This document shows, one piece after another, positions 896-24,936 of a DNA stretch of 28,629 bases (positions are counted from its first letter, which is position 1; each line of letters starts with the position of its first letter). The stretch lies in IMG/VR virus record IMGVR_UViG_3300028045_000070; one strand, 5' to 3'. Below the pieces are notes generated by a model. The model saw only the letters and a program-made list of their open reading frames with translations, had not been told where the DNA came from and ran no database searches. The position numbers were made by a program, and so were the translations under genes. Source of the DNA: a virus.

Positions 896-991
896 TGTGA
901 AATAAATATAACATAGATTCCGGTGGCTGTCAACAGGTCTCTAGCTCGTTTTCCGTCTTCCAGCTTGTTCAGCACACATTTCGGGTTAGAG

Positions 992-1525
992 CTAAATAAT
1001 TGCCCACACCAACGATACAAGTAATACAATAATAAGGGTTACGACCATGAGGACCGGCCCACCACGAGCACCACGTCGGTAGGGGCGGAGCCAGTCGCGA
1101 AGGCGGCTAAACCAGCTTTGGTTAGGCCCAGCATTCGACCCGCCACCAATGCTAATCCTGATAGTGGAATTTCTATTATTGGTTTTTGTCTTAGTGCCAC
1201 GTCCGCTGCAACCCAAGGTGGTGCATTTTTTACCGAATTCATCAAAGCATTCTTGATGAAAAGATGTAGCGCAGCCAGAGCAAAGGTGATACTCTTCTCC
1301 CTCTATCAAATCATCTCTGCAAAAAGGACAGATACTAACACTGCTACCAGTGATCTTTTGGGTGAGCTTATTAAGAGCTAGCACCACCCTCTTGATACCC
1401 CCTGGCTTATAGTGATCTTTCCATTGTTCCCTAGCTGCGGAAACAGGAATATCTAGTTCGTCGGCAAGTTCTCGCACTTGCTGCCAATATCGATGGCGAC
1501 CATTTTTTCTCGTGCGAAGGCTCAC
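992..1525 (-). CDS. PHD/RING-like cross-brace zinc-finger protein with a C-terminal transmembrane anchor
   Basis: CPFC-x13-CSGC-x4-H-x2-C-x7-C-x4-C fits a C4HC3 pattern. The protein ends with the hydrophobic stretch VLMVVTLIIVLLVSLVWAII. Confidence 0.5.
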   Translation of the reverse strand: MSLRTRKNGRHRYWQQVRELADELDIPVSAAREQWKDHYKPGGIKRVVLALNKLTQKITGSSVSICPFCRDDLIEGEEYHLCSGCATSFHQECFDEFGKKCTTLGCSGRGTKTKTNNRNSTIRISIGGGSNAGPNQSWFSRLRDWLRPYRRGARGGPVLMVVTLIIVLLVSLVWAII

Positions 1526-1528
1526 AGC

Positions 1529-2305
1529 CTACAATTCCAGCACCCTAGCACCCACCGAAGCAAACCGGGATACCACAGAAGTATCAATACCAGCAGTGTC
1601 TACTTGATCCAAGACCAGCGACATCGATGCAGCATATGAGGGGTCTGCGCCTGTTTCATCATCGTCATCAAAGAGTTTTCTTGATCCCATAGCCGCAAAT
1701 TTGACTGTCTTGATGACTTCGACAAGTTGCTCGGATAGGCGGCGCAGAACACTACGAACACCACCAATAAAGCTGCTACCCTGCCCTGATTTCTTAGTTC
1801 CGTAGGTAATCGTTCTACCAGCTTCAGTAACACCACCCGTAATCAGAAAAGATTCAGTCTTTGACAGCAATAGCCGGGTAATATCCTTTTTCCAAGAATT
1901 CAAGACCTCAACATAGACCCACTTCTTTGGGTCATAGTTGTTAATGCGGGTAAGTTTGCGGCCTTTCTGGCTGACAAACTCCATACGAGAAATCTTGTAT
2001 TGTGTTCCAAGCAGCTTAGCAGTTACAATCTCCTCCTTAAGCGCCTTTTTGCTAGAAAGCACGTAACCCTTCTTCTCCTTCTGCTTGACAATCTTAGAGA
2101 TGAAAATATCCCTATCATAGGATGAGCCAAAGTTATGAGTTTTTGCCTGGGCCTTACGTCCCACCCTACCGTAGCGAACAGTAACGCTCATACCGTTGAT
2201 ATCGTATTCCCAAAACTTATTAGACTGCTTGGTCTTATTGATATATGTAGTAGCCACTATGCCACCTGCGAGTTCGGTTGTGGGATGTTGTGAGCCAAAA
2301 GCCAT
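1529..2305 (-). CDS. WGR-domain protein
   Basis: The N-terminal segment KFWEYDINGMSVTVRYGRVGRKAQAKTHNF...EKKGY matches the WGR signature (W...GRiG...Q). The gene is the last member of the AAA+/DUF1257/DUF2997 operon. Confidence 0.7.
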   Translation of the reverse strand: MAFGSQHPTTELAGGIVATTYINKTKQSNKFWEYDINGMSVTVRYGRVGRKAQAKTHNFGSSYDRDIFISKIVKQKEKKGYVLSSKKALKEEIVTAKLLGTQYKISRMEFVSQKGRKLTRINNYDPKKWVYVEVLNSWKKDITRLLLSKTESFLITGGVTEAGRTITYGTKKSGQGSSFIGGVRSVLRRLSEQLVEVIKTVKFAAMGSRKLFDDDDETGADPSYAASMSLVLDQVDTAGIDTSVVSRFASVGARVLEL

Positions 2306-2514
2306 TGCACTTCATGCTGTAGGGCTTCGGCGCGAGTTGTGAAAGGCCCAAGCATAGGACCGTTGACGGGCGACATATCTGCCCTCCAGCCACCCTCCCC
2401 AGGCTCAACGTGACTAGCACGCTTAATTGTGGTAGTGCCCAACCCGGCTAGGCCCAAAAGATCATCATTGTAGATGAATCGAATCTGGCCGCTCTTAGAG
2501 ATGATAATGTCCAT
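2257..2514 (-). CDS. small protein with a DUF2997-like N-terminus (second copy)
   Basis: It starts MDIIISKSGQIRF, like the 2938-3126 ORF (IIISKSGQV). Its ATG overlaps the upstream stop (TAATG). Confidence 0.45.
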   Translation of the reverse strand: MDIIISKSGQIRFIYNDDLLGLAGLGTTTIKRASHVEPGEGGWRADMSPVNGPMLGPFTTRAEALQHEVQWLLAHNIPQPNSQVA

Positions 2515-2696
2515 TAGTCAAACCCCGCCAAAGATTCCATAAGGTCGTGTCTAGAGCTACCCAGGTCACACCGATAGCAACCAGACCGATCATACCCTTT
2601 CCGATTGAAGTAGTCTAGGCATGACTTGCAAAAAAGAGACTCCAGAGAGACGATACGAGCTTTTAGTTCTTTTATCTCATCCAGGGCGTCCATCAA
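2514..2696 (-). CDS. small hypothetical protein (coiled coil plus Cys pair)
   Basis: 60-aa ORF whose start overlaps the upstream stop (ATGA). Confidence 0.4.
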   Translation of the reverse strand: MMDALDEIKELKARIVSLESLFCKSCLDYFNRKGYDRSGCYRCDLGSSRHDLMESLAGFD

Positions 2697-2938
2697 GTGT
2701 CCATCCTACCTAGAGTAGTCTCAACAACAGAAGGGTTTTTGTGATTGTTAGCTTTGAAACGCAGGGCTGTGATATCACCAACACAGTCGGGATCAGGGGG
2801 AGATTGTTCTCGACCTTCATACTCCCGTGCATCCATCCAGATCCAGTAGCCCTGCTCTCCACTTCCACCAAGCCAATCAACAAAATGTTTACGCGCCTTC
2901 TTGTTGGCAAATTCGATTGTTAGATCACTATCGCTCAT
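2693..2938 (-). CDS. small hypothetical protein
   Basis: 81-aa ORF whose ATG shares a base with the stop of the DUF2997 gene (TAATGA). Confidence 0.45.
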   Translation of the reverse strand: MSDSDLTIEFANKKARKHFVDWLGGSGEQGYWIWMDAREYEGREQSPPDPDCVGDITALRFKANNHKNPSVVETTLGRMDT

Positions 2939-3126
2939 TATCCGCCAACACCTTGCGTGTCACTGACATCTTGGTCGTCGTAGTATTCAGTCTTTTTCTT
3001 GCTCTTGCTAGAGCCCAAAGCCTTTTCCAGAGCCTTAGTTAGCTTCTTACAACTCGACCCCGTAACACCTTCGACATCGATGGTCACCTGGCCGCTCTTG
3101 GAAATGATAATCTTGATTTCTTTCAT
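2938..3126 (-). CDS. DUF2997-family small protein
   Basis: MKEIKIIISKSGQVTIDVEGVTGSSC is typical of the DUF2997 partner of DUF1257. The gene sits 1 nt downstream of the DUF1257 stop. Confidence 0.6.
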   Translation of the reverse strand: MKEIKIIISKSGQVTIDVEGVTGSSCKKLTKALEKALGSSKSKKKTEYYDDQDVSDTQGVGG

Positions 3127-3127
3127 C

Positions 3128-3586
3128 TTAGTACTGCCTCAATCGGATAGTTGTTTCCCCGGTTGCGGGGTCAAAATCTTCGCTAACAAGCCAGTTCTGC
3201 GCCTTAGCCAGCTTTGATACTTGGCCTCGGGCCACCTCTTTGGCGTATTCGTGGATTAGCGACTCGCAATCTTTACCGGCTTTGGCCTGCATTCCATGAC
3301 CACCGGCCCAGAAATCCCACATCAAGATACTGGATTTCTTGCCCTCTCGGCTCTTGCAAATACCAATTTCATATGCTTGTTTATTGCCTGGGATGGAAAT
3401 GGCGTGATCACACTTGCCCAAATCACTAGCAGCAAAGCCAGTAGGCAGCGGGTAGTCACCGACACTTCGGCCATACCATCTATATGTTTTTTGGCCTTCA
3501 TTAAAGACCAGCCCAAGATTTTCGCAGGCTCGTGCTAGAGCAGCAAAGTCCTTAATTTCAATATCAACGATTGCAACGTGGCTCAC
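3128..3586 (-). CDS. DUF1257 (Ycf35-like) protein
   Basis: 152-aa ORF with a GTG start preceded by GGAGAG. Its length and motifs fit DUF1257, and it sits in the conserved neighbourhood with DUF2997 and the AAA+ ATPase. Confidence 0.6.
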   Translation of the reverse strand: MSHVAIVDIEIKDFAALARACENLGLVFNEGQKTYRWYGRSVGDYPLPTGFAASDLGKCDHAISIPGNKQAYEIGICKSREGKKSSILMWDFWAGGHGMQAKAGKDCESLIHEYAKEVARGQVSKLAKAQNWLVSEDFDPATGETTIRLRQY

Positions 3587-3752
3587 TATGACTCTCCTTG
3601 TTGTTCTTCGGCTTCGCCAACCAAGAAACTCATGCGAGCAGGGATAACAACTGTAAAATTACAGTTTCCACAGCACCGACCGTCTTCTACTGGCTGGGCG
3701 TTATGCCCTTTATCCCACCCATTTTGGTTCGGGATTTCCTTTTCGCAAATGC
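3586..3752 (-). CDS. small zinc-ribbon protein (55 aa; below the ORF-track cutoff)
   Basis: Manual translation gives MKCCICEKEIPNQNGWDKGHNAQPVEDGRCCGNCNF.... Its TAG stop overlaps the GTG start of the DUF1257 gene (TAGTG). Confidence 0.4.
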
Positions 3753-3764
3753 AACACTTCATAT

Positions 3765-5381
3765 CTACAGATCCAATTGTCTACCAGCACTAGTATCACC
3801 GGGGTTGTCAATAACGCTGGCGTTGACAGCATTCTTGGAAGCCCACGCTGCCATATGATCTAGCTGCTTTGACTTTGATTTGGCTAGGGGGTTTGTCTGG
3901 TTAATAGCAACCTCAATGCCTTTAGCACTGATTTCCTCTTCCTTGTAAAAGGCACTGTAAAGTGCACTTACAATGGATTCCTCTAGCTCCGCTCCGCTGA
4001 AATCCTTTGATGCTTCGACACAACTGTCAACGCCCTCGGCAAAAACCTCACTAGGATCACGACCGTACTTCTTGACGTGAATATTAAGAATCTCTTCTCG
4101 CTCTTTAGTAGAAGGCAGGCCAACGAAGAAGATTTCATCGAAGCGGCCCTTACGCAAAAGCTCAGGAGGCAACCCTTCAATCCGGTTGACAGTAGCAACG
4201 ATAAATACCGGAGCAGTTTTCTCCTGCATCCAGGTGATGAAGTTGCCAAAGACACGCTGGCTAGTCCCCCCATCAGTTGAGCCACCGCCCATTCCTGAAA
4301 ATGCCTTATCCATTTCATCAATCCAGAGAACGCAGTTACCTACCGCCTCAACAGTCTGAATAGCTGTGCGCAGATTAGCCTCACTTTGACCGACCAGACC
4401 GCCGAAGACACGTCCGACATCAAAGCGGATCAGGGGAACACCAAGAATGTTGCTAGTGGCTTTAGCTGAGAGGCTCTTGCCGCACCCAGGAAGGCCCACT
4501 AGCAAGATACCGCGAGGCATGGGCAGTTTGAAGTCGCGGGCCTTCTTACTAAAAGCCTTACTGCGAATCATTAGCCACTTTTTGAGGTTCTGTAGTCCCC
4601 CAACATCCTTGGCCGTTTCCGCTGCCTCAAAATACTCCAGAATGCCTGTCTTTTTAACAGCCAGTGCCTTTTCTCCTAGAACCATTTTAGAGATGGGCTT
4701 TACTTCTTCCTCTCCTGCCTTTTTGGCTTCAGCCCGCTCTACCAAGGCTTTGGAGAATGCCGCTTCTGCTTCGTCTGTGGTCAAACCCATAGCAGCCTGG
4801 ACGATACGTTCAATCTCATCGTCCTCGATAACACCGATTTTCTTCTTGTTACCGCTGTACAGTGCGTTAAAGATCTGGAAGATTTCCTCCTTGCCAGGAA
4901 GATCAAACTCAATAAGAGAGATATCTTTTTCCAGTTCCTTGGGAATTTCGCTAACTGGGCTAATGATAATCAAGGTTTTCTGCGTTTGCCGAAAATCCTT
5001 AGCAATATCCCGAATAAGACGCCTAATTACTGGATTCTTCAGAAAACTGTGAAAATCACGAAATACGAAGATTTTCTTTCCAGGCCGATCTTTGATCGCT
5101 TGCAGGGCCTCCCCAGGATCAGTCTCTTCATCCAGGGCCTCAGCACCATTTGCACCGATTTCGATAAAGCCTTCCGTGCAAGACCATACCTCAAGACCAC
5201 GCTTGCACTTTTTAGCGGCTTCAAAGATAGTCATCTCGCCACGATTTTCTTCTGCTGTTTGCAGGTAGATAATCGGGTAGCTGGCCTTGATGTAGGGAAC
5301 AAGTATATTCATGTGATCCACGTAGGTTAGTGGGAGGCGTCTATATGCCCATATTAGAGCACAGAATACGCTTTTTGTCAA
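3765..5381 (-). CDS. AAA+ ATPase, Ycf46-like family
   Basis: Walker A is LLVGLPGCGKSLSAKA and Walker B is VLWIDEMDKAF. The sensor/arginine-finger region LRKGRFDEIFFVGLP and the LIRFDVGRVFGG motif are characteristic of Ycf46. Confidence 0.85.
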   Translation of the reverse strand: MTKSVFCALIWAYRRLPLTYVDHMNILVPYIKASYPIIYLQTAEENRGEMTIFEAAKKCKRGLEVWSCTEGFIEIGANGAEALDEETDPGEALQAIKDRPGKKIFVFRDFHSFLKNPVIRRLIRDIAKDFRQTQKTLIIISPVSEIPKELEKDISLIEFDLPGKEEIFQIFNALYSGNKKKIGVIEDDEIERIVQAAMGLTTDEAEAAFSKALVERAEAKKAGEEEVKPISKMVLGEKALAVKKTGILEYFEAAETAKDVGGLQNLKKWLMIRSKAFSKKARDFKLPMPRGILLVGLPGCGKSLSAKATSNILGVPLIRFDVGRVFGGLVGQSEANLRTAIQTVEAVGNCVLWIDEMDKAFSGMGGGSTDGGTSQRVFGNFITWMQEKTAPVFIVATVNRIEGLPPELLRKGRFDEIFFVGLPSTKEREEILNIHVKKYGRDPSEVFAEGVDSCVEASKDFSGAELEESIVSALYSAFYKEEEISAKGIEVAINQTNPLAKSKSKQLDHMAAWASKNAVNASVIDNPGDTSAGRQLDL

Positions 5382-5392
5382 GAGAAGCGAGA

Positions 5393-6187
5393 TTAGAAAG
5401 TCAAACTACCGGTTACAGCCAGCGTCGTCAAAGCAGCAACGCCCAACGCAGTAAGGCCCGCTCCCAACAAAGAAAACATAACCACAAGTCCACGAAAACG
5501 ACTATCTCGCTTATACGCAGCCAGGAAGCGGGCTGCTTTGCCTGGAACAATAGGAGTCAAGATAGAGACATTAACGTCGGATTCTCGTTTTCCGTTTTCC
5601 GTCTCTACAGTCCAGGTGCCATCGCTTGCTTCCCCAATCAGGATACAAGGATAGTGCTTGAAGGTGTGATATACGATCATCCCAGGAGTCATAGCTTGCT
5701 GGTTGATTTCAGCCTGCGCCTTACGCTGTGCTACAACAAGTGCTGCATCTCGGTAATGCTCAGCAGTTACATCTCCCAAAACCTCACTAGCAGACAAGGA
5801 CTCTGGTTCAATGATCTTTTCTGCTCCTCGTAGGCGTTCGATGCTACACTCCCTAGCCCCATCCTCGGCAGCTAGCCGCTTTTTGTTGTTTTTGTTGTTA
5901 CGAGCATTGCGGGACTGGGCACCCGTAGCTCCGCGAAGTAGCTTGTAGCTGTAGTTTTCGCTTCCTCCATCAGGATGGGCTAGTTTTACCTCGCCACGAG
6001 CCCCGACAGACACGCACTCCAGCGCTGTGTTTGCAATTTTTTCATGCCCCCATACAAGTCCACTAGGGTAAGGCTGTTTCTGTTCTTCCAGAGTAGGACG
6101 ACGGGCAACATAGTAAGCCCCAACTACAATAGTGTCTGGGTCAAGGAGCGAATACTGCTCGACGAGGCTCTGCTGGTTAATAATCAT
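5393..6187 (-). CDS. tail-anchored membrane protein, paralog family member 1 (shared C-terminal domain)
   Basis: The C-terminal segment EHYRDAALVVAQRKAQAEINQQAMTPGMIVYHTFKHYPCILIGE...W.VE is followed by a TM helix. It aligns with the C-termini of ORFs 14138-15211 and 26789-28105. Confidence 0.55.
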   Translation of the reverse strand: MIINQQSLVEQYSLLDPDTIVVGAYYVARRPTLEEQKQPYPSGLVWGHEKIANTALECVSVGARGEVKLAHPDGGSENYSYKLLRGATGAQSRNARNNKNNKKRLAAEDGARECSIERLRGAEKIIEPESLSASEVLGDVTAEHYRDAALVVAQRKAQAEINQQAMTPGMIVYHTFKHYPCILIGEASDGTWTVETENGKRESDVNVSILTPIVPGKAARFLAAYKRDSRFRGLVVMFSLLGAGLTALGVAALTTLAVTGSLTF

Positions 6188-6217: not shown

Positions 6218-6245
6218 ACTATAGCATTTGCCAAAAACCTGTCAA
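6218..6245 (-). promoter_or_regulatory. sigma70-type promoter (TTGACAGG, N16, TATAGT) for the 5393-6187/AAA+ operon
   Basis: The minus strand reads TTGACAGGTTTTTGGCAAATGCTATAGT. A leader of about 30 nt with GGGGAAAAGGA follows before the ATG. Confidence 0.55.
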
Positions 6246-8043: not shown

Positions 8044-8691
8044 TCAGGTTTCTATATTTTTACCAGCCCCGAGTTTGATAGACCCACCATTTTTCTTTAA
8101 AGTGCCATCGCGCAACATCTCATTAAGAACAATGTTAGCTCTTACTTTTCTGACCCTTCGTAATTCTATTAGACGAGTAATTTCTTTATCTTCATTCATA
8201 AAACGGTTTAATAGTTCGTCTTTTGAAATCTTGGAGTCCCCTAAAGATTTCAAAAGAGATTCTTGTATTTTATCTTGTTCTTCTGTAATAGCTATCGGCA
8301 GCGGGTTCCATTTGCGAGTAGGATGCTCCCAATGATCCATCTCACAAGCAAAATGACGATGCTTTGTATTAGCTTTCCTAAAGCAAGGAGGCTCTAGAAT
8401 TAGCATCCATTCAGTACCTGCAGATAGCTTAGGGAAAAACTCCCTCCCCCGCTCGTAATCGCGGCTAATTACGTTATAGTTGTAAGGCTTCCCAAAAATA
8501 GATTTACCACTAAACTGCTCTTTAATGGTAGCCCAAAAACGTGATGACCAACACCAATCGCTCCCTACAATTCGATCCCCATCATAGGTATCAAAGAAGG
8601 TGACAAGACCAAACCAAGACTCTCTCCATAAAACAAAAGTTGTATAGAGGGTGGATTGCTCTTCGAAGATTATAATGTTTGTTTGGCTCAT
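8044..8691 (-). CDS. hypothetical protein (AT-rich segment)
   Basis: The ATG at 8689-8691 shares a base with the stop of the upstream MetRS-like ORF (TAATG), so the start was set at the internal Met of the track ORF. Confidence 0.45.
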   Translation of the reverse strand: MSQTNIIIFEEQSTLYTTFVLWRESWFGLVTFFDTYDGDRIVGSDWCWSSRFWATIKEQFSGKSIFGKPYNYNVISRDYERGREFFPKLSAGTEWMLILEPPCFRKANTKHRHFACEMDHWEHPTRKWNPLPIAITEEQDKIQESLLKSLGDSKISKDELLNRFMNEDKEITRLIELRRVRKVRANIVLNEMLRDGTLKKNGGSIKLGAGKNIET

Positions 8692-8990
8692 TAATTCTTC
8701 TCCAGGCGAGGGAACAGAGGCTCGCACTTAACGATTTTCTCAGCCAGAAGATTATCAAGAATCTTTTCTGCCGTTTCGGGAATTACGGGAGAAGCTAGAT
8801 TTACCAAGAAAATAACATCATTGACCAGAGTTGTTAAGACTTGCGTCAGACGCTCAGTCTCTCCCTTCTTGTAGAGTTCCCAAGGTTTTTCATCTTCGAT
8901 GGTTTTATTAGCTTGCCGAAGACGAGTCCAGATATCCTCCAAACCTTCTTTAAAGCGCAGATCGCGATATTCTTCTGGAACTCTCGACAT
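8691..8990 (-). CDS. stand-alone fragment resembling the C-terminal anticodon-binding domain of methionyl-tRNA synthetase
   Basis: KPWELYKKGETERLTQVLTTLVNDVIFLVNLASPVIPETAEKILDNL...EPLFPRLE matches the MetRS helical anticodon-binding region and its terminal PLFPR motif. The ORF is only 99 aa but has its own promoter. Confidence 0.55.
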   Translation of the reverse strand: MSRVPEEYRDLRFKEGLEDIWTRLRQANKTIEDEKPWELYKKGETERLTQVLTTLVNDVIFLVNLASPVIPETAEKILDNLLAEKIVKCEPLFPRLEKN

Positions 8991-9054: not shown

Positions 9055-9441
9055 CTATTGATTTGCTGAATGCTTAGGAGCATAGAAAGTACAAAGTTCA
9101 GTCCCAGCAGATACATCCTTCAGGGCGATGAAATCTAATAATCTGTTCTGGTCCCTGCCATTGATACTATAAAAAACATTTGGTGTCTTAGAGTGGTTGA
9201 ATATTGATCCATACCCGAAAACAACTAAGGCACCCTTTGGGTTACAGTGAGATTTAAAAACATAATTCTGCAGAATATTTGATTGGTCATATATCATATC
9301 CTTGTGAACTTCAACAAAAGGACAAATCTCTAATAGTTCCCCTTTTCGGATAGAACTTTTAGCGAAAACACCATAACCCGCTCCGGGAATTTTACTTTTA
9401 CCGATTATGAGTTTTACAGGCCCCTGGTACTTAGAATACAT
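9055..9441 (-). CDS. minimal SET-domain lysine methyltransferase (vSET-like, 128 aa)
   Basis: GAGYGVFAKSSIRKGELLEICPF is the SET-N GxG motif. FNHSKTPNV is the NHSxxPN motif. AGTELCTFY supplies the catalytic Tyr region. The overall layout resembles Chlorella virus vSET. Confidence 0.7.
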   Translation of the reverse strand: MYSKYQGPVKLIIGKSKIPGAGYGVFAKSSIRKGELLEICPFVEVHKDMIYDQSNILQNYVFKSHCNPKGALVVFGYGSIFNHSKTPNVFYSINGRDQNRLLDFIALKDVSAGTELCTFYAPKHSANQ

Positions 9442-14137: not shown

Positions 14138-15211
14138 CTAAGCACCAAAGTAGTGCAGCACAAAGTACCAACCAGCCATATCTACAGCAGCAAACAAAGC
14201 CACTACTGCCAGACCAATCTTAACCTTGCTGCTAGGGTTCGACACCTTAGCCCAGGCCCTCTTCACAAGACCAGGACTCTTGGTAGTCAGCATAGCAACA
14301 TTCAAGTGGGTTTTTTCTCCAGAAGGAGACTCTACCTGCCAAACATTTGCTGAAACCTTAGCAAGCAGAATGTAAGATGCACTCTTGAAGACGTGGTAAA
14401 CCTTCATTCCAGCGATAAACGACTGTTGGGCAATCTCTACACGGGCCTTACCCGGAGCAACCTCTTCCGCAGCATCTTGGTAGTGGGTTGAGACGACAGC
14501 CTCAAGGACGTTTTTAGCTGTAAGCAATTTCGGTGTATCTGGCTCGTTCATAACTGGTTCCTTAATCTCTGTCTTACCCATTGTAGTGGCGGGGTCTACG
14601 CCGAAGAATGATGTGCCATACTTGTCGAAGTAGGTTCCCTCTGCAAGATTTCCAGGTGGCTTCCCGCTGGCAAATGCGGCAGAATAAGATGCCTTCCCGG
14701 TGGCAAATGCGGCAGCATAGGATGCTTGCCACTCTCGACACTGGCAGCCAAAGCCCATCAACTCCTTCATAGTGCAAGAGCACAAATCAATTTCTTGACA
14801 AGGATTTGTTTGTCCCGAAGGGGCTTGAAAGTAGCCTGGCTCATAAGGCTCATATTGCTCGGTTGAGCACAATTCCGGGTGTTTTGGTTTTGCTGTTTTC
14901 ATATCAAAAGCTCCTTCGCTCGTAAACCTATCAGGATAGCCAGAAAAAATCGCATTCAACTCGCGGAACTTCTTTGCCACGATCTTTGCTTTGCACTTAT
15001 ATCCGACTTTTTCGGCGCACCCCGGATGATACCACTTATGATAATCGCCCCAATCGGAGGAGTTTGCCGGAACACCGACGCGGGTTGACTTATCCGCAAT
15101 TAGCTCCTGGCATTCTCGGCATTTGCTGGTGCCCGATTTAGCAGTCGCTACGATGAAAGCCTTCTTTTTCTTTTTCCGTTTCGTCTTTGGCATACTCGCG
15201 CTCGCGCTCAT
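14138..15211 (-). CDS. PARP-type zinc-finger (zf-PARP) protein with the paralog-family C-terminal domain and TM anchor (family member 2)
   Basis: AKSGTSKCRECQELI-x27-HKWYHPGC has the same spacing as the PARP1 nick-sensor finger (C-x2-C-x28-H-x2-C) and follows a KKKKKK stretch. The C-terminus HYQDAAEEVAPGKARVEIAQQSFIAGMKVYHVFK... ends in a TM helix. The start was set at the internal ATG 15211, which the promoter geometry makes leaderless. Confidence 0.7.
   Translation of the reverse strand: MSASASMPKTKRKKKKKAFIVATAKSGTSKCRECQELIADKSTRVGVPANSSDWGDYHKWYHPGCAEKVGYKCKAKIVAKKFRELNAIFSGYPDRFTSEGAFDMKTAKPKHPELCSTEQYEPYEPGYFQAPSGQTNPCQEIDLCSCTMKELMGFGCQCREWQASYAAAFATGKASYSAAFASGKPPGNLAEGTYFDKYGTSFFGVDPATTMGKTEIKEPVMNEPDTPKLLTAKNVLEAVVSTHYQDAAEEVAPGKARVEIAQQSFIAGMKVYHVFKSASYILLAKVSANVWQVESPSGEKTHLNVAMLTTKSPGLVKRAWAKVSNPSSKVKIGLAVVALFAAVDMAGWYFVLHYFGA
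14661..14726. repeat. 2x33 bp intragenic tandem duplication (encodes ASYAAAFATGK / ASYSAAFASGK)
   Basis: Read directly from the sequence. Confidence 0.6.
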
Positions 15212-15218
15212 TTTTCCT

Positions 15219-15247
15219 ATTAGATCACGCAGGGCGGGATCTGTCAA
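15219..15247 (-). promoter_or_regulatory. sigma70-type promoter (TTGACAG, N17, TCTAAT) with the ATG 7 nt after the -10
   Basis: The minus strand reads TTGACAGATCCCGCCCTGCGTGATCTAATAGGAAAAATG. Confidence 0.5.
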
Positions 15248-15255
15248 TGGAAGCC

Positions 15256-15603
15256 TCAAAGCCAAACCAGAGCCAAGCTGCCCCTTTTATTTTCGGTATC
15301 GACCTCTACAACAGGATGCAGTTTCTTGTCTTTGCCTAAAGGGGCAACACCTTGCAATTTAAGCTCTTTTTCAAGAGTTTTAACTGCGTGGCCGGGATTA
15401 AATGCTGCAACAATTTCTATTGCTTCATCCAAAGAACGACATTCATAGTAACGCTTATCACTTTTCCAGTTGAGCAGGCATTGGATGGTCATCCAATTAA
15501 AGCCGATGGACACACCTGTAAGAGATATAAGATTCTCGCCCTCATTACATGGAATTGCACAAAGAATATCAGAAAGCTGCTGTAGTTTCTCGAAATCAAT
15601 CAC
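15256..15603 (-). CDS. hypothetical protein (start uncertain)
   Basis: The track ORF 15256-15753 overlaps the upstream gene by 158 nt. A GTG at 15601-15603, preceded by AGGACGG and overlapping the upstream TGA (GTGATTGA), is a plausible coupled start. Confidence 0.35.
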   Translation of the reverse strand: MIDFEKLQQLSDILCAIPCNEGENLISLTGVSIGFNWMTIQCLLNWKSDKRYYECRSLDEAIEIVAAFNPGHAVKTLEKELKLQGVAPLGKDKKLHPVVEVDTENKRGSLALVWL

Positions 15604-24036: not shown

Positions 24037-24936
24037 CTACTCCTCGTCGTCGTCGTCGTCAAGAAACTTGTGCGCGGCACTAGCCGTGCCAGTGTTAGCC
24101 GCCGTCTTAGTAGCCGCAGCCTTGGGCGCAGCCTTAGCTGGTGCAGGAACCTCACCCGGCTTCTCCACTACCATTTTGTCGAGCCCGAACATCACCGCAG
24201 GCGTCATTTGAGTAGCCATGCAACTTTGCAAGCACATTTGGCTCATGCTGCCAACTTCTGTGATCTCATCATTGGTGATAAGGGCACCTTCACCACGCTT
24301 CTTACCAGAGACAGGCGGGTGAGAGATAACCGGAACCGCTTGCTCAACAAAAGGATACTGGTAGAGCTTTGCAGTAAAGGCATCAGTGACTTCATTTCCT
24401 GGGATACCAGGACCAATGACCAACTCGAAGACACCATTCTTGTTTTCAGTACGCATCTGGGTCTTAAGGACTAGATAGCCTCCACGGAGAGCACTAGCGT
24501 CAAGGCCACATTTCTCTTCAAGAGCCTTAACAGCTTCCCGATAAAGCGGGCTATCCTTCGGAGTCCCACCATTGATAAACATGGCGTGCTTGGCTGGACC
24601 AAAACGCTTCCGCGTTTTACCCTTGGGCTTATCGAAGATACCACTACCATCTTCAAGCATCTTGATAGTAAGCTCGGAGCCGCGTTCGATACCAGCATCA
24701 TCAAGAGCAGTGAAAACCGCTACGATAACGTCGGAAAAACGATTCTTCTGCATAGACTTCCACATCTCTTTGATGTGTTCCCGAGTCAATCGAAGAACGG
24801 TTTCATCTGGCAGAGTGCCAGCCGCCTGTAGGGTCTTAAAGAGACGAGTTTCTCGGATCTCGGGGTCCATATACTCGTCTTCGGGCTTGTTCGGTGCCCA
24901 AGGCCCGTTGTATGCTTGTTCAGTTTGTTCGGTCAC
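24037..24936 (-). CDS. hypothetical protein with an Ala/Pro/Lys-rich linker and acidic C-terminal tail (DDDDDEE)
   Basis: 299-aa ORF with a GTG start. The tail resembles the acidic tails of single-strand-binding or nucleic-acid-associated proteins. Confidence 0.5.
   Translation of the reverse strand: MTEQTEQAYNGPWAPNKPEDEYMDPEIRETRLFKTLQAAGTLPDETVLRLTREHIKEMWKSMQKNRFSDVIVAVFTALDDAGIERGSELTIKMLEDGSGIFDKPKGKTRKRFGPAKHAMFINGGTPKDSPLYREAVKALEEKCGLDASALRGGYLVLKTQMRTENKNGVFELVIGPGIPGNEVTDAFTAKLYQYPFVEQAVPVISHPPVSGKKRGEGALITNDEITEVGSMSQMCLQSCMATQMTPAVMFGLDKMVVEKPGEVPAPAKAAPKAAATKTAANTGTASAAHKFLDDDDDEE

Follow-up and report, generated by a model that had tools for sequence, protein, structure and literature searches.

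In cyanobacteria, the gene for the DUF1257 protein Ycf35 adjoins a DUF2997 gene in the cluster duf2997-ycf35-fed7 (PMC4284462), and DUF1257/Ycf35 proteins carry an N-terminal MSH motif (PMC13060386). Both features of cyanobacterial and plastid Ycf35 recur in the viral IMG/VR record IMGVR_UViG_3300028045_000070, a stretch of 28,629 nucleotides (nt) that was analysed at its full length and is referred to below as the window. Between positions 1529 and 6187, the minus strand of the window carries a dense run of genes that includes those for an AAA+ ATPase, a DUF1257-like protein, a DUF2997 protein, a member of the family here called RASHVEP and a WGR-domain protein. The published cyanobacterial cluster contains a ferredoxin gene and lacks the AAA+ gene, the RASHVEP gene and the gene for a partner protein bearing a C-terminal tail, whereas the window lacks the ferredoxin gene.

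Rhizobium phage RHph_I4 (MN988552.1) has the same gene order, AAA+, DUF1257, DUF2997 and one RASHVEP-like open reading frame (ORF), and its AAA+ protein is 36% identical to that of the window over 91% of the length. Different from the window, RHph_I4 encodes no WGR protein, and the C-terminal tails of its proteins are weakly similar. The DUF1257 gene of RHph_I4 is annotated as such, unlike the window copy, whose divergence puts it out of reach of Pfam. In deposited phages, annotation alone already shows AAA+, DUF1257 and DUF2997 genes side by side. In the literature, a function has been published neither for the RHph_I4 gene set nor for that of the window. The RASHVEP component, the fifth position with its tail-bearing proteins, the replacement by WGR and the shared tail are all undescribed in the searchable literature.

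To compare the locus with its relatives, 39 IMG/VR loci and 28 loci of GTDB genomes, all anchored on DUF1257, were gathered, plus metagenomic contigs; all their ORFs were searched with iterated profiles of the window proteins, and conservation was counted over 73 non-identical loci. DUF2997 is present in 68 of the 73 loci, the RASHVEP family in 64, the AAA+ ATPase in 61 and one DUF3150-like protein of 290–430 amino acids (aa) in 48; one member of the DUF3150-like family matches PF11348 (5.5e-10). The WGR protein is present in 11 loci, and no locus (0/73) has both the WGR and the DUF3150-like protein. DUF1257, DUF2997 and RASHVEP usually follow one another in this order, the AAA+ gene being placed before or after them, and every lineage has its own small ORFs interspersed among the conserved genes. 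As judged from this gene content, the module is composed of the AAA+ ATPase, DUF1257, DUF2997, RASHVEP and a fifth, tail-bearing partner. An earlier note on this DNA, which had regarded the WGR protein as an extension of the AAA+/DUF1257/DUF2997 set, had asked whether WGR proteins recur beside that set. They do so in 11 non-identical lineages, in which the proteins are 40–78% identical and the gene for WGR comes immediately after that for RASHVEP. Because the WGR protein holds the role of the DUF3150-like protein and the two never occur in one locus, WGR is better read as a replacement for the DUF3150-like fifth protein than as an extension; no homology is detectable between the two families.

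The ATPase and the fifth protein have a C-terminal tail in common. The tail peptides of the window are SAGRQLDL, FASVGARVLEL and KFAAMGSRKLFDDD. The AAA+ protein ends in SAGRQLDL (GRQLDL-COOH, encoded at 3768–3785 on the minus strand), the WGR protein ends in FASVGARVLEL-COOH (1532–1564, minus strand), and an internal copy of the tail motif, KFAAMGSRKLFDDDDE, is located further upstream in the WGR protein (1655–1702, minus strand). Among the 214 ORFs of at least 40 aa in the window, the pattern R.[LIVM][DE][LIVMF]D?$ is matched by these two proteins only, and at the nucleotide level the two tail-coding segments do not form a repeat. Within the WGR family, 33 of the 35 proteins listed end in R.L[DE]L; the internal copy of the family reads KFAAxGxRKLFDDD and is parted from the C-terminal one by an acidic linker. 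Across lineages, the core of the tail is R-x-(I/L)-x-hydrophobic, followed by an acidic residue or the COOH end.

In other lineages the same tail is found on other proteins. AAA+ and DUF3150-like proteins of the same locus end in NIRKLAA and GNRKLAA, NGRKLAA and GGRKLAA, GRKLKLDD and GRKFKLEDED, ARRISVE and SRAISFDD, or KRRIATD and TRKIQMD, respectively. The same tail ends two DUF6744 proteins (in loci L047 and L049) and, in three lineages, the coiled-coil ORFs located between DUF2997 and RASHVEP (ARKLELD, PRILDLD and PRILDLE). Since the WGR and DUF3150-like proteins are not detectably homologous, the tail is a short motif carried by unrelated proteins. From lineage to lineage, the tails of the ATPase and the partner change in step: the similarity between AAA+ and partner tails of the same locus averages 12.6, compared to 9.5 ± 0.6 for permuted loci, and none of 2000 permutations (0/2000) reaches this value. 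The loci share ancestry and the permutation test therefore overstates the significance, so the statistic is to be taken as an indication, not as a probability.

The AAA+ ATPase (515 aa; 3765–5312, minus strand) matches PF00004 (1.8e-28; 100.1 bits against a cut-off of 21.2) and, over its full length, the phage family phrog_8638 (1e-139). Its AAA domain is nearest to the D2 domain of p97/Cdc48 (E 1e-49); for the N-terminal domain of ∼230 aa (residues 1–232), no solved relative was found. The catalytic motifs are intact and include GLPGCGKS (Walker A), WIDEMDK (Walker B), TVN (the sensor-1 Asn) and RKGRFDE (the arginine fingers). Pore loop 1 is GLVGQSE, with Leu at the position where an aromatic residue is usual. 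By domain match and motifs, the protein is a classic-clade AAA+ ATPase of the unfoldase type, Cdc48-like; the name Ycf46, under which it had been introduced, was met only within the generic COG label 'SpoVK/Ycf46/Vps4'. The start of the protein is ATG 5312, not TTG 5381: thirteen AAA+ homologs share a beginning at M(S)N.L.PYIKAGYP, the PHROG family matches the long ORF from residue 27 onward, and the gene callers on the source contigs choose ATG 5312. We assigned this start because the three lines agree. As an AAA+ protease pair of the HslUV or proteasome type, the system was rejected, no peptidase-fold partner being encoded in the module. Two AAA+ homologs differ in size: that of L082 (741–3743) is 1000 aa in length, with an intein bearing a LAGLIDADG endonuclease inside the ATPase, and that of L049 (4640–7024) is enlarged to 794 aa, a longest-ORF value.

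The DUF1257/Ycf35-like protein (152 aa; 3128–3586, minus strand) has a GTG start and the N-terminus MSH, which is invariant across this protein and its homologs. Although the 152-aa protein itself gives no Pfam hit to PF06868 even at E≤10, 23 of its 32 aligned homologs match PF06868 (best E 2e-09); one of these, P0019, which carries PF06868, is 56% identical to the window protein (E 2e-51). Because its homologs match the family and the MSH motif is kept, the protein can be regarded as a clear relative of the DUF1257 family. The invariant MSH suggested an N-terminal-nucleophile peptidase, which was ruled out by the fold. DUF2997 is represented by a 62-aa ORF (2938–3126, minus strand) that matches PF11211 (5.7e-15; 55.4 bits against a cut-off of 24.1) and phrog_23133. 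Natural fusions of DUF1257 and DUF2997 were found in P0088 (233 aa) and P0116 (228 aa). Both fusion proteins have an additional N-terminal segment containing Cys. Locus L084 has tandem DUF1257 genes (5163–5612 and 5663–6028), the second of which lacks the N-terminal MSH segment.

The fourth conserved component is the RASHVEP family protein of 85 aa (2257–2514, minus strand). The earlier note had taken this ORF for a second DUF2997-like protein added locally; our results instead describe a separate, widely conserved component. In the hhalign comparison with DUF2997, only 17 N-terminal columns, corresponding to an IxIxxdGxv hairpin, are aligned (probability 74%), and neither the protein nor 24 of its relatives give a Pfam hit; a second DUF2997 was therefore ruled out. 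The protein has no match in the PDB, and tblastn against deposited phages gave none either. The family has the signature RASHVEP..GxWxADLxPvxGPxLGPFxxRxEALxxExxWL. Of 1.84 billion cluster representatives, 2273 belong to it at E≤1e-3. The 85-aa protein has a β-β-β-α core. A possible likeness of this core to the AP2/ERF DNA-binding domain concerns both the fold and the segments GGWxADM and LGPFTTRAEAL; statistically, this likeness is weak.

The WGR protein of the window (242 aa; 1529–2257, minus strand; GTG start at 2257) consists of the WGR domain (residues 1–85), a conserved middle part, the internal tail-like motif, the acidic linker and the C-terminal tail. Its assignment, as first proposed, holds: the domain matches PF05406 (1.4e-13; 51.2 bits against a cut-off of 22), and the protein matches PDB entry 2ra8 (E 3e-10). 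In the literature, DNA binding is ascribed to the WGR domain (PMC7824862). The family is small: in a set of 5.8 billion proteins it makes up 35 clusters, almost all with a length of ∼240 aa. The C-terminal part was also considered as a divergent DUF3150-like domain; this was rejected, as hhalign finds nothing. Elsewhere in the window, one 299-aa protein (24037–24936, minus strand) ends in AAHKFLDDDDDEE, resembling the WGR internal motif SRKLFDDDDE; owing to this resemblance it may be a further tail-bearing protein, away from the operon.

The reading that we prefer, to which we give a probability of roughly 0.4, is that the region comprises two transcription units and a five-part module, that the shared tail serves as a docking peptide and that the module remodels DNA-bound targets. 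Through the tail, a single receptor would be reached both by the ATPase hexamer and by its exchangeable, nucleic-acid-binding partner; this receptor might be the co-encoded small proteins, the N-domain of the ATPase or a sliding clamp; the small proteins would be favoured by their constant co-occurrence and by the fusion proteins. In the WGR clade, the WGR domain would supply the recognition of DNA or of breaks, and, powered by ATP, the machine would act during infection on proteins located at DNA ends or nicks, remodelling or extracting them. This remodelling step is itself only a tentative suggestion. Equally speculative is the extended form of the scheme, according to which (F-A-x-x-)G-x-R-x-L-[DE]-L would be a portable address tag, varying with the lineage, by which the ATPase and interchangeable WGR, DUF3150-like, DUF6744 and coiled-coil partners assemble on one receptor, the whole being a widespread and hitherto undescribed five-component machine of large phages for DNA ends or nicks, with RASHVEP as an AP2-like DNA binder and DUF1257/DUF2997 as the receptor core.

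Several observations weigh against the docking scheme. The AAA+ protein and one of its neighbours also form tail pairs in Streptococcus satellite phage Javan368 (L003; TRKVLV and NRKIKI) and in Mycobacterium phage Shida (L002; VRVLDL and YALDFEEVV), where DUF1257, DUF2997 and RASHVEP were not detected nearby, and because of these pairs the case for the small proteins as the tail receptor is weakened. For the distant WGR homologs in L081 and L083, no module was seen in the 0.6–2.1 kb visible upstream. The DNA-directed role is suggested by the neighbourhood and the WGR domain only, and the literature holds no experiment on, or function for, any of the small proteins.

Some of the same evidence bears on the possibility that the tail is a degron, which marks the partner and the ATPase for unfolding by the AAA+ protein of the module or by host ClpXP and thereby sets up a timed turnover circuit. 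Classic recognition tags of AAA+ unfoldases, such as ssrA (LAA) and MuA (RRKKAI), are extreme C-terminal motifs. The conserved tail is likewise an extreme C-terminal motif, the tails of one clade end in RKLAA, the ATPase is of the unfoldase type, and the tail pairs that persist without the small proteins would also fit. However, most tails have an acidic end, unlike the known ClpX tags, the module encodes no peptidase, pore loop 1 carries Leu where an aromatic residue would be expected, and a degron on the unfoldase itself would be unusual. We consider a degron rather unlikely, though it fares best among the alternatives to a docking peptide.

The docking reading also has to be set against a related one, in which the tail is a peptide that binds the sliding clamp and recruits the ATPase and its partner to the DNA clamp of the host or the phage. 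Bacterial clamp motifs have the form QL[SD]LF or QLxLxL, and also L[SD]LF. RQLDL and RVLEL resemble the former, RAISF and RKITF resemble the latter, many neighbouring genes serve DNA replication and repair, the tail is carried by non-homologous proteins, and its lineage-specific variation could track the clamps of different hosts. Different from the clamp motif, however, the RxLDL class has no final aromatic residue; the RKLAA class does not fit, and none of the loci showed a clamp gene. We consider clamp binding improbable.

For the transcription of the region, we searched the window for promoter-like sites of the pattern TTGACA, 16–17 nt, TGn and TnnnnT (with at least four of six matches to TATAAT). 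Nine sites are on the minus strand (first bases 28279, 26135, 21707, 18070, 15247, 12377, 6245, 5381 and 933) and none on the plus strand, compared to 0.015 expected from first-order Markov simulations of the strand, and all nine, being on the coding strand, precede minus-strand genes. Owing to this over-representation, the window appears to be cut into many short transcription units. Site P1 (TTGACA-16-TGc-TATAGT; 6218–6245, minus strand) is located 30 nt upstream of the gene for a 264-aa tail-anchored paralog (paralog 1) and scores 11 of 12 against the promoter hexamers, plus the TG. Site P2 (TTGACA-17-TGc-TCTAAT; 5353–5381, minus strand) falls within the 80 nt that separate the AAA+ gene from paralog 1, with 40 nt between the site and the downstream AAA+ ATG. 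P2 also has the TG two bases ahead of its second hexamer, and its –10 hexamer TCTAAT is identical to that of the site at 15247, before the 375-aa paralog. The TTG at 5381, the start of the long AAA+ ORF, is the first base of the TTGACA of P2. The next site downstream (TTGACA-17-TGt-TATATT; 905–933, minus strand) starts the unit that follows the RING-like gene described below.

The relatives were informative as to the role of P2. In L077, L080, L085 and L086, a TTGACA-16/17-TAT(A/C)(C/A)T site is located directly before the AAA+ gene, and no relative has the 264-aa paralog upstream of the AAA+ gene. Because the AAA+ gene is preceded by a site of the P2 class both in the window and in these four relatives, and the paralog is never upstream in relatives, the AAA+ gene most likely heads its own transcription unit, and the paralog probably has a separate one behind P1. 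The region would then most likely consist of two units, the paralog behind P1 (6245) and a polycistronic run of nine genes from AAA+ to the RING-like gene behind P2 (5381). Three points speak against this division. The –10 hexamer of P2 has C at position 2 instead of the near-universal A, no convincing terminator was found after the paralog gene, and for lack of such a terminator read-through from P1 (6245) could occur. Apart from this, in the marine relative L077 a TTGACA-type promoter-like site (9250, plus strand) is located just before the RASHVEP–WGR gene pair, and this pair may be expressed separately there.

The earlier note had proposed a single operon of ten genes, transcribed from 6218–6245, in which the cyanobacterial Ycf46/DUF1257/DUF2997 neighbourhood is extended and tied to a toolkit for PARP-type ADP-ribosylation. 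Its P1 site was confirmed. The junctions are tight, P1 is strong and no convincing terminator follows the paralog; the WGR gene, a zf-PARP finger, a PARP catalytic-domain gene and an MVP-like gene are all present in the window, and in some relatives PARG or zf-PARP genes are found within 8 kb of the module. Despite these points, we regard this proposal as unlikely. The AAA+ gene has a conserved promoter-like site immediately ahead of it, in the window as well as in four relatives, and the paralog, which had been counted as an operon member, is never upstream of that gene in relatives, so that the single unit is not supported. The RASHVEP gene is a universal component and no extension, and the WGR protein substitutes for the DUF3150-like one. 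As to the PARP toolkit, Pfam finds no PARP catalytic domain in any protein of the operon, the WGR protein included, and the PARP-like gene (21773–22522) is 19 kb away from the operon with a promoter of its own. We found no direct link of the operon to PARP catalysis, and by its gene content it is not a PARP system. Among cyanobacteria, duf2997-ycf35-fed7 (PMC4284462) was the one documented cluster that we found. The association of Ycf46 with Ter loci found no support: in the literature searched, there was nothing on DUF1257, DUF2997, DUF3150, DUF6744 or Ycf46 in connection with Ter loci or phage function. The least probable alternative, that the module is cargo and belongs to the IetA-type AAA+ class of cassettes for defence against phages or for counter-defence, draws on matches of the AAA domain to the PADLOC IetA models (6e-24) and NCBIfam IteA (3e-17) and on an Acb5 anti-CBASS gene near the module in L084, but it is very unlikely, since these matches span the generic AAA domain only (62.8 bits against a cut-off of 510), neither an IetS protease nor another PADLOC component is present, and the module has replication genes as neighbours in the genomes of lytic phages and on 39 IMG/VR contigs.

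Membership of the IetAS system was rejected on the same grounds, and by sequence the operon is neither a PARP system nor a known defence system. In the PADLOC scan, the other operon proteins had no match at E≤0.01, the exceptions being two weak matches between the WGR protein and models of Cas5/Csm4 (E 7.5e-4 and 4.7e-3). Both are at chance level, and Cas5/Csm4 do not belong to a defence system built on an ATPase.

The run itself comprises ten minus-strand ORFs that lie back to back from 6187 down to 992. Nine of these are inside 1529–6187, namely the 264-aa paralog, AAA+, the 58-, 152-, 62-, 81-, 59- and 85-aa ORFs and WGR; the tenth, a RING-like ORF at 992–1525, is beyond this interval. The dense run described by the earlier note therefore stands, and its count of ten genes within 1529–6187 does not. 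Identical genes were called independently on six source contigs. These contigs are 99.96–100% identical, and no signal of selection on the small ORFs could be obtained from them because of this near-identity. In a codon-usage model trained on the other long genes of the window, all ten ORFs score above zero in their own frame and below zero in the other two, including the three small ORFs without homologs (58, 81 and 59 aa).

From AAA+ to RING, the junctions are +2 nt (AAA+/58-aa ORF), –1 (58-aa ORF/152-aa protein; TAGTG), +1 (152-aa protein/DUF2997), –1 (DUF2997/81-aa ORF; TAATG), –1 (81-aa ORF/59-aa ORF; TGATG, or –4 with a TTG start), –1 (59-aa ORF/85-aa protein; TAATG), –1 (85-aa protein/WGR; TAGTG with the GTG start at 2257, or –49 with ATG 2305) and +3 (WGR/RING). 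The overlapping codons noted earlier are thus present in this part, and the packing is consistent with translational coupling; the distance of +11 reported at the upper end arises only with the start TTG 5381, the real gap being 80 nt. We hold the anatomy of the operon as described here to be very likely.

The 58-aa ORF (3586–3762, minus strand) resembles a zinc ribbon with four Cys and had previously been listed with 55 aa as part of the extended set. Like the 81-aa ORF (2693–2938, minus strand), which scores as coding, and the 59-aa ORF (2514–2693, minus strand), which has a coiled-coil segment and a CxxC...CxxC pattern, it is, as judged by profile searches of the locus ORFs, a lineage-specific filler: these three ORFs and the 264-aa ORF are confined to the near-identical source contigs. 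Small ORFs occupying the same slots in relatives were considered as homologs of the 58-, 81- and 59-aa ORFs and rejected as unrelated. Direct scans of Pfam, NCBIfam, PHROG and PADLOC gave nothing usable for the 58-, 81-, 59-, 85- and 264-aa ORFs, and megablast of the window against deposited phages gave no match.

Both ends of the run are outside the conserved module. The 264-aa tail-anchored paralog (5393–6187, minus strand) shares a domain of ∼90 aa with paralogs of 375 and 438 aa, which stand alone in the window. The last gene encodes a tail-anchored protein of 177 aa (992–1525, minus strand), which matches Prok-RING_1 (PF14446) with 27.2 bits (E 3.8e-06), under the cut-off of 29.1, and is by this score RING-like only; a RING-like gene after WGR is not conserved in the relatives.

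Around the module, the annotated flanking genes (from more than 40 loci) include those for Ku, three ligases, PolA, UDG, ERF, YqaJ, RadC, helicases and PARG, and no structural (capsid or tail) gene was found among 148 flanking ORFs. Contigs of the WGR clade span 10 kb to 938 kb and carry inteins, homing endonucleases and genes for NAD-dependent ligase, UDG, Acb5, a sigma factor, PARG and zf-PARP. The longest of the six source contigs is 318,241 bp in length, and the exact 85-aa protein is also encoded on a contig of 599,739 bp. These elements are probably very large phages. The window has no hallmark virion gene, and for this reason a viral origin is probable only. Identical or related module proteins were seen on contigs of 318, 531, 600 and 938 kb, and some of these large contigs have been binned into Verrucomicrobiota or Promethearchaeota metagenome-assembled genomes.

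Other genes of the same 28-kb stretch are the MVP-like gene, with MVP shoulder and Vault repeats, the PARP catalytic-domain gene, the tail-anchored paralog with a zf-PARP finger, a SET-domain gene, an SNF2 helicase gene and a tRNA-Thr gene (16098–17855, 21773–22522, 14138–15265, 9055–9441, 19591–21627 and 22870–22942). Together, the MVP and PARP genes recall the eukaryotic vault and vault PARP. A stand-alone ORF of 99 aa (8691–8990, minus strand) is weakly like the anticodon-binding domain of methionyl-tRNA synthetase (Pfam Anticodon_3). Taken together, the observation that started this study was partly confirmed and its interpretation partly supported: the AAA+ (1.8e-28) and DUF2997 (5.7e-15) assignments stand by direct Pfam matches and that of DUF1257 by way of its homologs, and the comparative findings are more telling than the proposed PARP link.

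The AAA+/DUF1257/DUF2997 set is common in phage genomes, and Ycf35 with DUF2997 is also found in cyanobacteria and plastids. What is added here is a testable anatomy, with five components rather than three, of which the fourth belongs to an unnamed family with more than 2000 representative clusters and the fifth position is held by unrelated proteins that all bear the ATPase's own C-terminal tail. The anatomy of the tail may open up the biology of Ycf35 and DUF2997 together with a common function of large phages.

Compared to the p97/Cdc48 unfoldases, whose adaptors bind by short linear or C-terminal motifs, the window ATPase has an AAA domain nearest to p97 D2 with intact motifs, a conserved tail at the extreme C-terminus and interchangeable partners. 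It differs in its single AAA domain, its unrelated N-domain and the change of the pore-loop aromatic residue to Leu, and its partners carry the ATPase's own tail, unlike the adaptors of p97. In phage T4, gp43, gp33 and gp55, the partners of the gp45 clamp, have a common C-terminal clamp-binding tail. Like these, the window proteins are unrelated phage proteins that end in the same short peptide in a setting of DNA metabolism; the motif is different, and no clamp was identified in the loci. The WGR domain is shared with PARP1–3 and with the MolR-like proteins of bacteria and jumbo phages. Different from PARP1–3, the window protein has no PARP catalytic, zinc-finger or BRCT domain, and its C-terminal 150 residues are specific to the family of 35 clusters and end in the tail of the module. 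A eukaryote-like, DNA-break-sensing WGR domain would in this way have joined a bacterial-virus machine through a short peptide, independently of PARP catalysis.

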